From: an uncultured Chloroflexia bacterium
Lineage (GTDB): Bacteria; Chloroflexota; Limnocylindria; Limnocylindrales; CSP1-4
NCBI GenBank assembly: GCA_963715245.1
Contig: CAVQRM010000002.1
Location: forward strand, 219,692-283,691
Direction: 5' to 3'
DNA length: 64,000 bases
Position 1 is the stretch's first letter, and the number at the start of each line of letters is the position of its first letter. This document shows, piece after piece, positions 57,233-61,220 of this stretch. Position numbers and translations under genes: made by a program. The notes under the pieces were generated by a model. The model ran no database searches and was not told the origin of the DNA. It worked only from the letters and a program-made list of their open reading frames with translations.

Positions 57233-59886
57233 TCAGCGATCGTGGGCGTGGGTCGACCCGTTCCCGGACCCGTGCTGGTGTCCGTTCCCGTTGCCGTTCC
57301 CGTTGCCGCCGACGAGCGAGGGAGGCAGGACGGGCAGCATGCGGCTCGAGTCGAGGAGACGTCCCTCGGCCCGCGCCCGCTCTGCCCAGTCGCGCTCGCG
57401 GCGGATGTAGCTCATCTCGGTCTCGCGCTCCACCGAGGCCAGCGCGAGGAGGTCGATCATCGGCTCCTCGCGGGACGTGTGGCTGAGCTCGAACTGGTCG
57501 CTGTCGCGGACCGCGTCGTACGGGCACGCGTCCACGCAGATGCCGCACAGGATGCAGCGGCTCTCGTCGACCTCGTACTTCTGGAGGACGCGGGGCTTGG
57601 GCATGAGCGCGCCGGTGGGGCACGTCTCCGCGCAGCGGCCGCAGGAAACGCACGGCGTGTCGTTGAGGCTCATGTCGAGCGGCGTCGTCACCAGGGTGTC
57701 GAAGCCGATCCGCATGAAGTCGTAGCAGGCGGCGCCGACGACCTCGGCGCACACGTTGGCGCACCGGCCGCAGTCGATGCAGCGTGACGGCTCCCTGAGG
57801 ATGAACGCGTGGGAGTCGTCGCGGACGTAGTCGTGGTTGTAGCCCGTGAACCGGTTCTCGGTCACGGACCGGTAGCCCGCCCCCTGGTGGAACTGCGGCT
57901 CGAGCGTCTTGAGCGTCGTCCCGTACTCGATCCCCAGGCGGCGGAGATCGCAGAACCCGATCGCCTCGCAGGTGCACTGGAGGCAGCGGGTGGACTCGGC
58001 GACGGCCTCGTCGCGGTGTACGGGATCTCGTACTCGATGTAGTTGCTGTTGCGGGCCTCGGGCTCGAGGGCCTTGAGCCGGTAGCGCGGCTCCTTGATCT
58101 CGCCCGTGAACGGGACGATCGAGAGGAACTCCGGCTGCGGCTCGGCGAGCGTCTGGCGGGTGCGGATGGCCGACAGGTCGTTGCCCTTGAGGTACGCGTC
58201 CACCGCGTAGGCGGCGCGGCGGCCCTCGGCGATCGCCTGGACGACCGTCGCGGCGCCGATCCGGACGTCGCCGGTGCCGAACACGCCGGGCCGGGAGGTC
58301 TCGAAGGTCACCGCGTCGGCCTTGAGCCTGCGGTTCTTCGTCTGCTCGACGTTGTCCGAGCCCGGGCCGATCCAGGTGAGGTCGGGGCCCTGCCCGATGG
58401 CGAGGAGCACCCGGTCGCAGGGGATGACGAACTCGGTTCCCGGCGCGGGCTCGGGGCGGCGCCGGCCCGACGCGTCGGGCTCGCCCAGCGCCATCCGGAT
58501 GAACTCGATCCCGGTGACCTTGCCCGTCTTCGCGTCCGTGACGACCCGCGTGGGCCCGGCCTGGAAGATGGCAGTCACGCCTTCTTCGATCGCCTCGTGG
58601 ACCTCGGATGCCGCGGGCATGTCCTTCATGTCGCGCCGGTAGACCAGGGTCACCTCGCCGGCGCCCTGGCGGACCGACGTGCGGCTGCAGTCCATCGCGG
58701 TGAAGCCGCCGCCCACGACGACGACACGCGTCCCGGCATGCCCCGGGTACGGCAGGCCCAGCGTGGCCGTGCGCAGGTACTCGAGGCCGTCGATCACGCC
58801 GTCGGCGTCCTCGTTGGGAATGCCCAGCTTGTTCGTGTCGTAGCAGCCGATGGCCACGAGGACGCTGTCGAAGCCGCGGTTCTGGAGGTCGTCGAGCGTG
58901 AAGTCCTTGCCGAGCTCCTGGTTGCACACCAGCTTGCCGCCGAGGCGGGTCACGGACTCGTACTCGGCTTCGAGGACCTCCACCTTGGGCAGGCGGTACT
59001 GCGGGATGCCGTAGCGGAGCATGCCGCCGGGGGCGGGGTCGCGCTCGAAGACCGTCACCTCGTGCCCGGCGAGGAGCAGGTAGTACGCCGCGCTCATGCC
59101 CGCGGGCCCGGAGCCGATCACCGCCGCGCGGCGGCCGGACGGGGCCTGCTTCTCGAACGGGACCGGCGGGTCCATGTTCTCGTCCAGCATCGCCTTCAGG
59201 ACCTGGTCGCCGGCGTAGCGGTGGCTGTCGCGGATGGCGATCGCCTCGTCAACCTCGTCGCGCCGGCAGTGCTCCTCGCATGGGGCGGGGCACACGCGGC
59301 CGAGGATGCTGGGGAACGGGATCGTGCGCTTGAAGATCCGCGCGCTCTCGACCCAGTTCGCCTCGGCGTTGGCCTTGAGGAAGCCCGGGATGTCGATATG
59401 GCTCGGGCACTTGTTCTGGCAGGGCGGGAGGCAGTAGGCGTTGTGGTCGCTGAAGATGAGCTCGAGGTTCGTCTTCCGGATCCGGCGCAGCTCGTCCGTC
59501 TGGGTGCGGACCACCATGTCCGCCTCCGCCTCGCGGGAGCAGGAGATTGGCGGCTGGTCCTCGCCCTCGACCTCGCACACGCACATCCGGCACGCGCCGA
59601 AGCCCGGCAGCTTGGGCTCGTAGCACAGGGTCGGGATCTCGATGCCGTTGTCCCGGCAGATCTCGAGGATCGTCTGGCCCTCGAAGCCCTCGACGACGCG
59701 ACCGTCCACCTCGATCCGGATCCGCGGCGTGCTCTGCGGCCGCTGCGGGGACTGCGTCGTGATCAGCCGCTCGGCGAGGCTGTCCTCGCGGGGCGTGACC
59801 GTGTCGTAGACGGCAGGCTGGTCCGGACGCGCGTCACGCCGCTCGAGCGGCGCGTCGGTGTCGGGGCGAACGATGAGGTCGGCCAT
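57233..59886 (-). pseudogene. Composite Fe-S flavoprotein (2Fe-2S NuoG-like N-terminus, GltD-like FAD/NAD(P)H domain, NuoG-like 4Fe-4S region, NuoI C-terminal half), with a 1-nt frameshift near 58012-58020 (as assembled)
   Basis: Frame A (from ATG 59886): IEVDGRVVEGFEGQTILEICRDNGIEIPTLCYEPKLPGFGACRMCVCEV, then CLPPCQNKCP...GRVCPAPCEEHC, AAVIGSGPAGMSAAYYL...GGMLRYGIPQYRLPK, ending ...NYIEYEIPYT. Frame B continues RDEAVAESTRCLQCTCEAIGFCDL...RCIDCGRCANVC...CVSCGRCAETCPTGAL...[24 protein letters not shown]...FELSH...MIDLLAL. The junction tac acc|gcg ac would be repaired by one extra C. Confidence 0.8.
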
Positions 59887-61220
59887 CAGCGGGATCCCGG
59901 TGTCGACGCACCCACCGCGATGGGGTGACAGACCCCGGCGGGACAGGTGCTGCGGAGGAGGTGGTCGTCGAGCTCGGATCGGAAGTATCGCATCCCGCTG
60001 GTGAACGGAAGGGTCGCCAGGCGCTCGTGGTCACACAGCCCGGAGGCGACGACGTCGTGCGCGAGGTCCTCCATCAGCGCGAGGTCGGTCGGCTTCGGAC
60101 GCCCGCTCGCGACACGGTCGCCGATCTCGTACAGCCGCCGCAGGCCGATCCGGCACGGGATCGTCTTGCCGCACGCCTCGTCCGCGGAGAACTTCGTGAG
60201 CAGCCGGGCCAGGTCGACGATGCACGCCCGGTCGTCCGCGATGACGACGGAACCCGAGCCGATGTGGGCCCCGACCGCGCGCAGCGCGTCGAACTCGTAC
60301 GGGGTGTCCAGGAGATCGGCGGGGAGCAGGCCGCCGGTCGGCCCGCCGACGAGCAGTGCCTTGAGGCTGCGCTTGCCGATGCCGCCCGCCAGGCGCACGA
60401 GCTCGGTGAGCGGGGTGCCGAGCGGGACCTCGGCGATGCCCCCGCCCGCAGGCCCGCGGAGCTGGACGAGGATCGTGCCGGGGCTTGCCGTCGACCCGAT
60501 CGCCGCATACGCTGCGCCGCCCTCGCGCACGATCCACGGGACGGATGCCAGGGTCTGGACGTTGTTGACGACGGTGGGCTTGTCGAACAGGCCCTTCTCG
60601 GTGGGGTACGGCGGGCGCTGCTCTGGCTGGCCGCGCTTGCCCTCGAGGGCCCTGAGCAGCACCGTCTCCTCGCCCAGCATGTAGGCGCCCTGGACGGGCC
60701 TGACCGTGACCGTGACCCGGTGGCCGGAGCCCATGACGTCGTCGCCGAGGAAGCCCGCCTCCTCCGCCGCGAGGAGCGCGCCCTCGAGCAGCGTGATGAG
60801 GCTTGTGTCCTCCGCCCGGACGGCGATGATCGCCTCGGTCGCCCCGATCGCGAATGCCGCGATCGCGAGGCCCTCGATGACGACCCAGGGGTCGCTCGCC
60901 ATGAGCGTCGCGTCGGTCCGGACGGCCGGGTCGGCCCCGTAGCCGTTGGCGACCACGTACCGCTGCGTCGCCGGCTGGTTCGCAGCTGCCCGCCACTTCT
61001 CGCCGGTCGGGAAGCCGGCGCCGCCGCGGCCCCGCAGGCCCGAGCTCGCAACGGTCGCGATCGTGCCCGTCGCGCCCAGGTCCCGGACCGACCGCCGGAG
61101 CGCCTCGAAGGCACCCGCGCGCGTCGCCGCGTCGAGGTCGCCCGGGTCCTCGGCAAGCGCCGCGACGCGCCCGGTGACGACGGCCGGCCACTCCTTCGGC
61201 GTCTTGAGGAACGCGCCCAT
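59886..61220 (-). CDS. nuoF: NuoF-like FMN/NADH-binding subunit (variant N3 cluster motif)
   Basis: 444 aa from ATG 61220: SGLRGRGGAGFPTGEKW, GAYMLGEETVLLRALEGKRGQPEQRPPYP, NNVQTLASVP. The cluster motif reads EACGKTIPCR (Thr where the second Cys is expected), then GLCDHE. TGATG overlaps at both ends. Confidence 0.85.
   Translation of the reverse strand: MGAFLKTPKEWPAVVTGRVAALAEDPGDLDAATRAGAFEALRRSVRDLGATGTIATVASSGLRGRGGAGFPTGEKWRAAANQPATQRYVVANGYGADPAVRTDATLMASDPWVVIEGLAIAAFAIGATEAIIAVRAEDTSLITLLEGALLAAEEAGFLGDDVMGSGHRVTVTVRPVQGAYMLGEETVLLRALEGKRGQPEQRPPYPTEKGLFDKPTVVNNVQTLASVPWIVREGGAAYAAIGSTASPGTILVQLRGPAGGGIAEVPLGTPLTELVRLAGGIGKRSLKALLVGGPTGGLLPADLLDTPYEFDALRAVGAHIGSGSVVIADDRACIVDLARLLTKFSADEACGKTIPCRIGLRRLYEIGDRVASGRPKPTDLALMEDLAHDVVASGLCDHERLATLPFTSGMRYFRSELDDHLLRSTCPAGVCHPIAVGASTPGSR

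Follow-up and report, generated by a model that had tools for sequence, protein, structure and literature searches.

A flavoprotein module of Nfn/Stn type nested in a split NuoI, a putative NADPH- and NADH-oxidizing arm of complex I in Limnocylindria

A window of 64,000 nucleotides (nt) from a seven-contig assembly (87% complete) of an uncultured Limnocylindrales soil bacterium (Chloroflexota) was analysed for an operon of respiratory complex I in which three unusual genes, here named IE, F and BIG, stand between nuoH and nuoJ. The operon is encoded on the minus strand and reads nuoA-B-C-D-H-IE-F-BIG-J-K-L-M-N. Part of nuoD, nuoH (about 61887-63110), the three genes and then nuoJ, nuoK, nuoL, nuoM and nuoN (51263-57223) lie within the window on the same strand, and nuoA, nuoB, nuoC and the start of nuoD are found just past the window edge on the same contig. 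Intergenic spaces are minimal: nuoH is located directly upstream of IE with a gap of 4 nt, TGATG overlaps occur at the IE/F and F/BIG junctions as at nuoJ/nuoK, and nuoJ follows BIG after a 9-nt gap containing a Shine-Dalgarno-like GAGGGA, with overlaps thereafter. No promoter-like or terminator-like site above chance was detected in the operon interior. At the gene level, the Q-module and the membrane subunits of complex I form a complete set in one operon with the input module. Canonical NuoE, NuoF, NuoG and NuoI are absent, the NCBIfam cut-offs for these subunits being reached by none of the module proteins. On balance, the three genes probably constitute the electron-input arm of the only complex I of this organism, a non-bifurcating arm that would be fed by reduced nicotinamide adenine dinucleotide phosphate (NADPH) and probably by its non-phosphorylated counterpart (NADH), and that would be docked through a NuoI made of two chains. 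An original prediction covering positions 57233-61220 had described four departures from NuoEFG, namely a NuoE-like part without Cys, an altered cluster motif in NuoF, a GltD-type unit inserted in the NuoG-like protein and the lack of the molybdopterin-like domain of NuoG. All four were recovered and, judged from their conservation, they are one conserved design and not a degenerate NuoEFG.

IE (61220-61882), which lies just outside the range covered by that prediction, encodes a protein of 220 amino acids (aa) where the first half of NuoI is fused to an N-terminal docking domain of NuoE/NfnC type. The first 85 residues correspond to the NuoI half (61628-61882), with its amphipathic N-terminus and a single CETCFQCAQACP motif (61682-61717) conserved in all families. 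In a search of the PDB, residues 9-73 aligned to residues 17-81 of the 163 residues of NuoI/TYKY (8qby_I). The NuoE-like helical domain (residues ~117-190; 61313-61534) matched the N-terminal domains of NfnC, StnA and HydC, and covered only positions 2-64 of the 145 positions of the Pfam profile PF01257 (2Fe-2S_thioredx). No Cys is present in IE past residue 66, and the thioredoxin-like 2Fe-2S domain (N1a, or C1) is absent after the helical part. The conservation of this form was examined in a close-relative set, i.e., the best 80 species-level Limnocylindrales relatives obtained from a contig scan with an IE alignment, f1 to f4 denoting the sampled families of the class. The short Cys-free form was found in 76 of 79 close species. 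The C-terminal domain of the NuoE-like part was deleted in most f1 genera and was kept in f2, f4 and two f1 genera, with a CxCxxC motif and, in some of them, one further Cys. Frames of ~700 aa found at IE in some genomes were considered as possible IE-F fusions and rejected, as they arise where GC-rich DNA lacks stop codons and the frame extends upstream into nuoH.

The second half of NuoI is located at the C-terminus of BIG (57461-57580), where the last ~60 structured residues aligned to residues 93-147 of the same 163-residue chain. Against the NCBIfam NuoI model TIGR01971 (121 positions), IE covered positions 1-63 with 49.6 bits and the BIG C-terminus positions 71-116 with 55.9 bits; joined in silico, both halves formed one stretch from position 1 to position 116. 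Neither protein is a NuoI in the sense of TIGR01971 or PRK05888, i.e., a single chain with two CxxCxxCxxxCP motifs at the curated score. A search of the whole genome returned no intact nuoI, the best two matches being the two halves themselves, and a single copy of nuoD. The count of cluster motifs was also informative. BIG contains three full CxxCxxCxxx(C/CP) motifs, two of which belong to a ferredoxin-like domain of NuoG/HydA type, which leaves exactly two orphan half-sites, one in BIG and one in IE. The nesting of the module inside a split nuoI, a point absent from the original prediction, would, on these alignments, be the key to docking.

F (59886-61220) encodes a NuoF-like protein of 444 aa with the Pfam domains Complex1_51K and NADH_4Fe-4S, corresponding to a core of Bfu-B type. 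Its kinship was judged by PDB bit scores, which were of 342-348 bits with NfnB, StnB and HydB vs 221-269 bits with NuoF from complex I. The score against the NuoF model TIGR01959 (341.9 bits) remained under the cut-off of 558.65. The alignment with StnB and NfnB was restricted to residues ~114-537 of their 584-602 residues. The extra N- and C-terminal domains of Bfu-B are missing from F, in which no Fer4 domain was detected by Pfam. The motif of the N3 (B1) cluster is EACGKTIPCR (60150-60179), with the second Cys replaced by Thr (codon ACG at 60162-60164), so that the site reads C-x2-T-x2-C...C instead of the four Cys of B1. Among close relatives this position is occupied by Thr in 43 sequences and by Ser in 23. 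It is Ala in f4, and Cys in f3, in one f1 genus (f1g5) and in four other Chloroflexota families. The three remaining Cys are invariant in the whole alignment of 77 F sequences, which comprises 66 close sequences and several families. CxxXxxC...C sites are classically associated with 3Fe-4S clusters. The N3-like site of F may hold such a cluster, an O-ligated or three-Cys 4Fe-4S cluster being equally possible.

The flavin and nucleotide site of F is better preserved. Its residue numbering coincides with that of T. thermophilus Nqo1, and residues G67, G69, N92, D97, G183, E184 and T223 are invariant in the 77 sequences, K75 and E185 being nearly so, compared with 21% of all alignment columns in the 66 close sequences. 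Besides, R202 and Y205 match the NAD-binding NfnB. The ratio of non-synonymous to synonymous substitution rates (dN/dS) of F is 0.24-0.40, like that of the membrane subunits. Altogether, F probably carries a selected but modified site for flavin mononucleotide (FMN) and NAD(H).

BIG, the large subunit, is read in two parts on either side of a 1-nt frameshift (58012-58016) that is specific to this assembly, the frame switching between ...EIPYT and DEAVAEST.... The upstream part (58015-59886) comprises an N-terminal extension, a 2Fe-2S domain (Fer2_4, 59497-59724), a two-cluster Fer4_20 region (59194-59445) and a GltD-NfnL unit for flavin adenine dinucleotide (FAD) and NADPH (Pyr_redox_2, 58222-59127). 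The downstream part (57233-58012), recognized by Pfam as Fer4 and Fer4_Nqo3 and matching NfnA residues 555-700 in the PDB, comprises a CxxCxCx5C cluster motif (57950-58012 region), a two-cluster ferredoxin-like domain (Fer4, 57617-57781), the NuoI half and an Asn-Gly/His-rich low-complexity tail, GGNGNGNGNGHQHGSGNGSTHAHDR (57236-57310). The cluster motifs following the GltD unit are CLQCTCEAIGFC, CIDCGRCANVC and CVSCGRCAETCP. Residues 56-789 of BIG aligned to residues 4-700 of C. saccharolyticus NfnA (9bov_A) with an E-value of 2.6e-160. T. sibiricus NfnA (9n5u_A) and S. ovata StnC (8oh5_C) were also matched (E-values from 1e-160 to 1e-141), followed by the large subunits of NfnSL and by GltD. 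The Nfn-Bfu structures taken as references were 9BOV/9BP5 for C. saccharolyticus, 9N5U for T. sibiricus and 8OH5 for S. ovata (PMC11829005, PMC12018979, PMC10482914). The likeness of the module to NuoEF-related enzymes carrying GltD-like domains is thereby confirmed and narrowed down to NfnA/StnC for BIG and NfnB/StnB/HydB for F. The insertion of a GltD unit in a NuoG-like protein is not unique, since it is the known architecture of NfnA and StnC.

The alignment with NfnA and StnC ends at residue ~700 of their 1172-1178 residues, where the NuoI half and the low-complexity tail follow in BIG, and neither Pfam nor the PDB search detected a molybdopterin-like or Fdh-like C-terminal domain. As a NuoG, BIG scored 88.5 bits for a TIGR01973 cut-off of 470, with only its N-terminal ~100 residues matching. 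Ligand conservation is strict. In an alignment of 74 BIG sequences, H148, C152, C156, C160, C199, C203, C207 and H222 are invariant, as are the four Cys of the 2Fe-2S domain, the four of CxxCxCx5C, the eight of the ferredoxin-like domain and the four of the NuoI half. The GltD unit keeps GSGPAG, the R239-equivalent residue, GGGFTA and VYRRD, all invariant in these sequences. Its second Rossmann motif followed by YRR, as in the NADPH-using StnC and NfnA, designates it as a predicted NADPH site. Three peculiarities of BIG may be added. Cys104 (59575-59577, CRMCVCEV) is an extra Cys that is replaced by Val in 70 of 74 homologues and is therefore no cluster ligand. The N-terminal extension of ~55 aa (59725-59886), with a conserved AERL-x-T-x-SPQRP, is not part of the canonical subunit. 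The length of the GGNGNGNGNGHQHGSGNGSTHAHDR tail varies among relatives, and the tail is absent from f2, f3 and f4.

The frameshift leaves two open frames (57862-59886 and 57233-58927), and the joined reading is covered without interruption by more than 100 homologues of 860-930 aa that are 82-94% identical. At the shift, five relatives have one base more than the window. Frame changes also affect nuoC, hoxF and an NDH-2-like gene in the same assembly, and among the 80 species-level relatives they occur in BIG at other positions, only in long-read MFD metagenome-assembled genomes (MAGs). The segment downstream of the shift displays a dN/dS of 0.11, the lowest in the operon. Hence, these comparisons indicate that the frameshift is most likely an assembly indel and not the mark of a dead gene.

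The module is widespread in the class. The IE fusion was found in 192 of 201 sampled genomes, and the full A-B-C-D-H-IE-F-BIG-J-K-L-M-N order holds in f1, f2 and f4. In f3 (genome G016; L026, L034), B-D-IE-F-BIG and A-H-J-K-L-M-N are located on separate contigs, each genome encodes only one NuoD and one NuoH, and nuoI is missing between H and J in the membrane-subunit cluster. The possibility that B-D-IE-F-BIG of f3 is a soluble hydrogenase was considered and rejected, its NuoD-like protein being devoid of the NiFe Cys motifs and the single NuoH standing in the other cluster. The carriers are, by source name, Candidatus Limnocylindrales or Chloroflexota MAGs from soil and water. About a dozen genomes from four other Chloroflexota families (f10, f20, f29, f47) also contain an IE-F-BIG set, with a canonical N3 site and alongside ordinary complex I genes. 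The module genes are under purifying selection, as illustrated by dN/dS values of 0.11-0.40.

From these data, the arm would be a homologue of the soluble Nfn-Bfu/Stn transhydrogenases that no longer possesses the bifurcation apparatus and is integrated into NuoI. The NuoI half carried by IE would keep the N-terminus that seats NuoI on NuoH, NuoD and NuoB, and the half carried by BIG would stand in place of the Fdh-like domain. Both halves are predicted to co-fold into one two-cluster ferredoxin fold (N6a/N6b), the ligands of which would come from two chains, and the NuoE/NfnC docking domain retained on IE would clamp the NuoF-like subunit. In the assembled arm, NADPH would transfer a hydride to FAD in the GltD/NfnL unit, and electrons would then pass to the cluster held by three Cys and His222, to a second cluster and to the CxxCxCx5C cluster, up to a Y-junction. 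NADH would probably transfer a hydride to FMN in the NuoF-like subunit, from which electrons could reach the same Y-junction through the N3-like cluster (three Cys and Thr) and the 2Fe-2S cluster. The common exit would lead from the Y-junction through the two-cluster ferredoxin-like domain to N6a/N6b, to N2 in NuoB and to quinone. The counterpart of this ferredoxin-like domain in NfnA and StnC is a branch regarded as a dead end. Since NADPH and NADH are both strongly exergonic donors towards quinone, no bifurcation would be needed. Complex I of this organism can thus be proposed to use probably NADPH as well as NADH. The earlier suggestion that a membrane arm is fed from two nucleotide sites is reasonable in view of the invariant FAD/NADPH motifs, the FMN/NAD(H) core and the operon overlaps; its other part, confurcation, is not supported, because the hallmarks of bifurcation are missing.

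Several observations weigh against this arm as described, and most of them would suit an enzyme using NADPH only, in which the NuoF-like subunit is a structural relic without NADH oxidation and electrons enter solely via the FAD site of the GltD/NfnL unit. In most lineages, Thr, Ser or Ala replaces the second Cys of N3, and no compensating Cys was found in the compared F sequences. In the nucleotide site, D94 (Nqo1 numbering) is Tyr or Phe in nearly all sequences and E95 is mostly Gly, the NADE loop being rewritten to NGYG, and at N219 the residue can be N, Q or H. N1a has disappeared. Compared between families, F is the fastest-evolving protein of the module, with 44-46% identity vs 58% for BIG. 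Moreover, the NDH-2-like gene could take over NADH oxidation and, together with a PntB transhydrogenase gene, provides other routes for NADH oxidation and transhydrogenation, so that the physiological weight of each branch is not deducible from sequence. Three further points lie outside F. The Lys ligand of the A7/C7 cluster, reported as strictly conserved in StnC (PMC10482914) and NfnA, is K170 in 9bov_A and aligns to His222 of BIG, which is His in 74 of 74 sequences. The joined NuoI halves scored 101 bits, just below the 113-bit cut-off, and the genome is only 87% complete. Instead, the glycine-rich FMN loop, the nucleotide-site residues listed above and the three N3 Cys are (nearly) invariant, far above background, the dN/dS of F is similar to that of the membrane subunits and the two NfnB-like residues are kept. 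A selected but modified FMN/NAD(H) site favours dual input, and an enzyme restricted to NADPH is considered unlikely.

A second alternative is a confurcating or bifurcating complex I, in which NADH, NADPH (or ferredoxin) and quinone are coupled at a flavin-based site. The module is indeed homologous to the bifurcating NfnABC and StnABC, and three redox arms meet at the proposed Y-junction. The likeness is extensive, with three subunits corresponding to an E/C-like docking protein, a NuoF-like FMN protein and a large subunit with an N-terminal 2Fe-2S domain, and with a GltD/NfnL FAD-NADPH unit inserted at the His-x3-Cys motif of the large subunit, as in the members of this group. CxxCxCx5C and the two-cluster ferredoxin-like domain follow in both cases, YRR and the R239 equivalent being kept. 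In these enzymes, the N-terminal domain of NfnC anchors the A and B subunits, and the A2-A4-A5 (C1/C2) branch directed towards the Fdh-like domain has been described as a non-functional remnant (PMC11829005, PMC10482914). The bifurcation site of Bfu was defined as B1-FMN-C1, with an exit via the B3/B4 ferredoxin domain (PMC11829005). C1 is required, and deletion of the equivalent cluster in Stn abolished bifurcation (PMC11829005, PMC10482914). However, in the module described here C1 and B3/B4 are absent, B1 is reduced to three Cys and Thr or Ser, the N- and C-terminal domains of BfuB are missing from F, the A7 ligand Lys170 is exchanged for His and the NuoI half replaces the Fdh-like domain at the end of the A2-A4-A5 branch, the anchor domain being kept. 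Unlike for NfnABC and StnABC, the genes of the module are part of a nuo operon, and their products presumably are bound to the membrane and do not bifurcate electrons. Support could be sought in the Nuo-Bfu complex I predicted in Geobacter, Deferribacteres, Planctomycetes and Nitrospirae (Schut et al. 2022, PMC9304861), where a Bfu-related module also replaces NuoEFG inside a nuo operon. Nevertheless, Nuo-Bfu retains NuoI as a separate subunit, together with a complete BfuB that includes the ferredoxin domain and a BfuC that carries its cluster; it is devoid of the GltD insertion and was predicted to confurcate NADH and ferredoxin (PMC9304861). As neither NADPH nor NADH needs coupling to reduce quinone, a bifurcating complex I appears highly improbable.

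It is equally hard to accept that IE, F and BIG form a separate soluble Nfn-like oxidoreductase merely located inside the nuo operon, with half-ferredoxin motifs unrelated to NuoI. Their closest solved relatives are soluble, and the final two Cys motifs of BIG are also similar to those of an ordinary two-cluster ferredoxin, as illustrated by matches to polyferredoxins. However, complex I would then be without NuoI throughout the class, including f3, where the H-J segment lacks nuoI. IE keeps the NuoI-specific N-terminus and BIG the NuoI-specific sequence after its motif, the motif count leaves exactly the two orphan half-sites, and the genes are tightly coupled for translation. Finally, a decaying operon, in which the frameshifts of BIG and nuoC are real inactivating mutations, is scarcely credible: two frame changes in one operon would suit it, but similar changes in hoxF and the NDH-2-like gene of the same assembly, their restriction to long-read MFD MAGs for the BIG of relatives, the low dN/dS downstream of the shift and the fact that this is the only complex I of the genome all speak against it.

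Compared with canonical complex I (T. thermophilus Nqo2/1/3/9, E. coli Nuo), the arm proposed here has the same operon position next to nuoH and nuoJ, a NuoF fold with FMN/NADH motifs, a NuoG-type N-terminal 2Fe-2S domain, and the N-terminus and both CxxCxxCxxxCP motifs of NuoI. It differs by a NuoI distributed on two polypeptides, the absence of N1a, an N3 deprived of one Cys, the lack of the molybdopterin-like domain of NuoG, and the presence of an additional FAD/NADPH unit that brings two further clusters. Mbx-like operons, whose genes form a complex I-like cluster, have been described with a GltD-type NAD(P)H flavoprotein where NuoI is expected (Degli Esposti 2015, PMC4758237). In these operons, the gltD-related protein takes the place of NuoI and the complex has been suggested to reduce NAD(P)+, whereas here NuoI is retained as two halves, with a NuoF-like subunit and a NuoG-type domain in addition. 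Our literature search found no description of an Nfn-type module inside a split NuoI, the nearest reports being PMC9304861 and PMC4758237.

These comparisons lead to a broader proposal, which is put forward tentatively as a distinct possibility. The whole class could possess a proton-pumping complex I that oxidizes NADPH directly at a GltD-type FAD site and NADH at a modified FMN site, with N6a/N6b built from two polypeptides. The dead-end branch of Nfn and Stn would be a live wire to quinone, and the enzyme would stand as a natural intermediate between bifurcating transhydrogenases and respiratory complex I. Usual descriptions of complex I give NADH (or ferredoxin, or F420H2) as its electron donor. 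If the proposal is true, a complex I equipped with a defined site for NADPH would act as an NADPH:quinone oxidoreductase and proton pump, and the energy and redox-balance models of Limnocylindria, which are abundant in soils and lakes, would change. Cutting a two-cluster core subunit and fusing each half to a new module would be a new mode of attachment, of which no example was found in the literature. The N3 site with three Cys and Thr, Ser or Ala, and the Lys-to-His exchange at the flavin-proximal cluster, could be considered as natural experiments on Fe-S ligation. In current annotations, these genes are named "formate dehydrogenase major subunit" or "glutamate synthase small subunit", and pipelines would report NuoE, NuoF, NuoG and NuoI as missing. 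Therefore, metabolic reconstructions probably understate the respiratory capacity of these bacteria.

Elsewhere in the genome, the remaining NuoF-like genes are part of Hox and Fds-type clusters. A NuoE-NuoF fusion of 697 aa with a canonical SCGQCVPCR motif is found beside an FdhA-like gene (contig C4 188,466-196,798), the N-terminal and catalytic parts of which are ~5 kb apart, suggesting rearrangement or misassembly. A cluster for a Hox-type NAD-linked [NiFe] hydrogenase comprises HoxE, HoxF, a HoxU-HoxY fusion, HoxH and a protease (contig C1 about 793,600-798,900). The NDH-2-like gene (contig C6 about 881,900-883,300) is frame-shifted in the assembly and its NDH2_C match is under the cut-off; the PntB gene is located at contig C1 361,000-362,400. 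On the window contig, nuoC (contig C2 about 284,170-284,800, beyond the window) shows its frame change as tblastn matches in frames -2/-3, and is one intact open reading frame of 182 aa in the same-genus relative L018. A PF02636 (Methyltransf_28) gene is located just upstream of nuoA (contig C2 about 286,000-287,200), and one also adjoins the B-D-IE-F-BIG cluster of f3 (L026 8689-9807). NDUFAF7/MidA, an assembly factor of eukaryotic complex I, presumably belongs to this family. NuoB (contig C2 about 285,400-285,700) possesses an N-terminal extension of ~95 aa that is not part of the canonical subunit.

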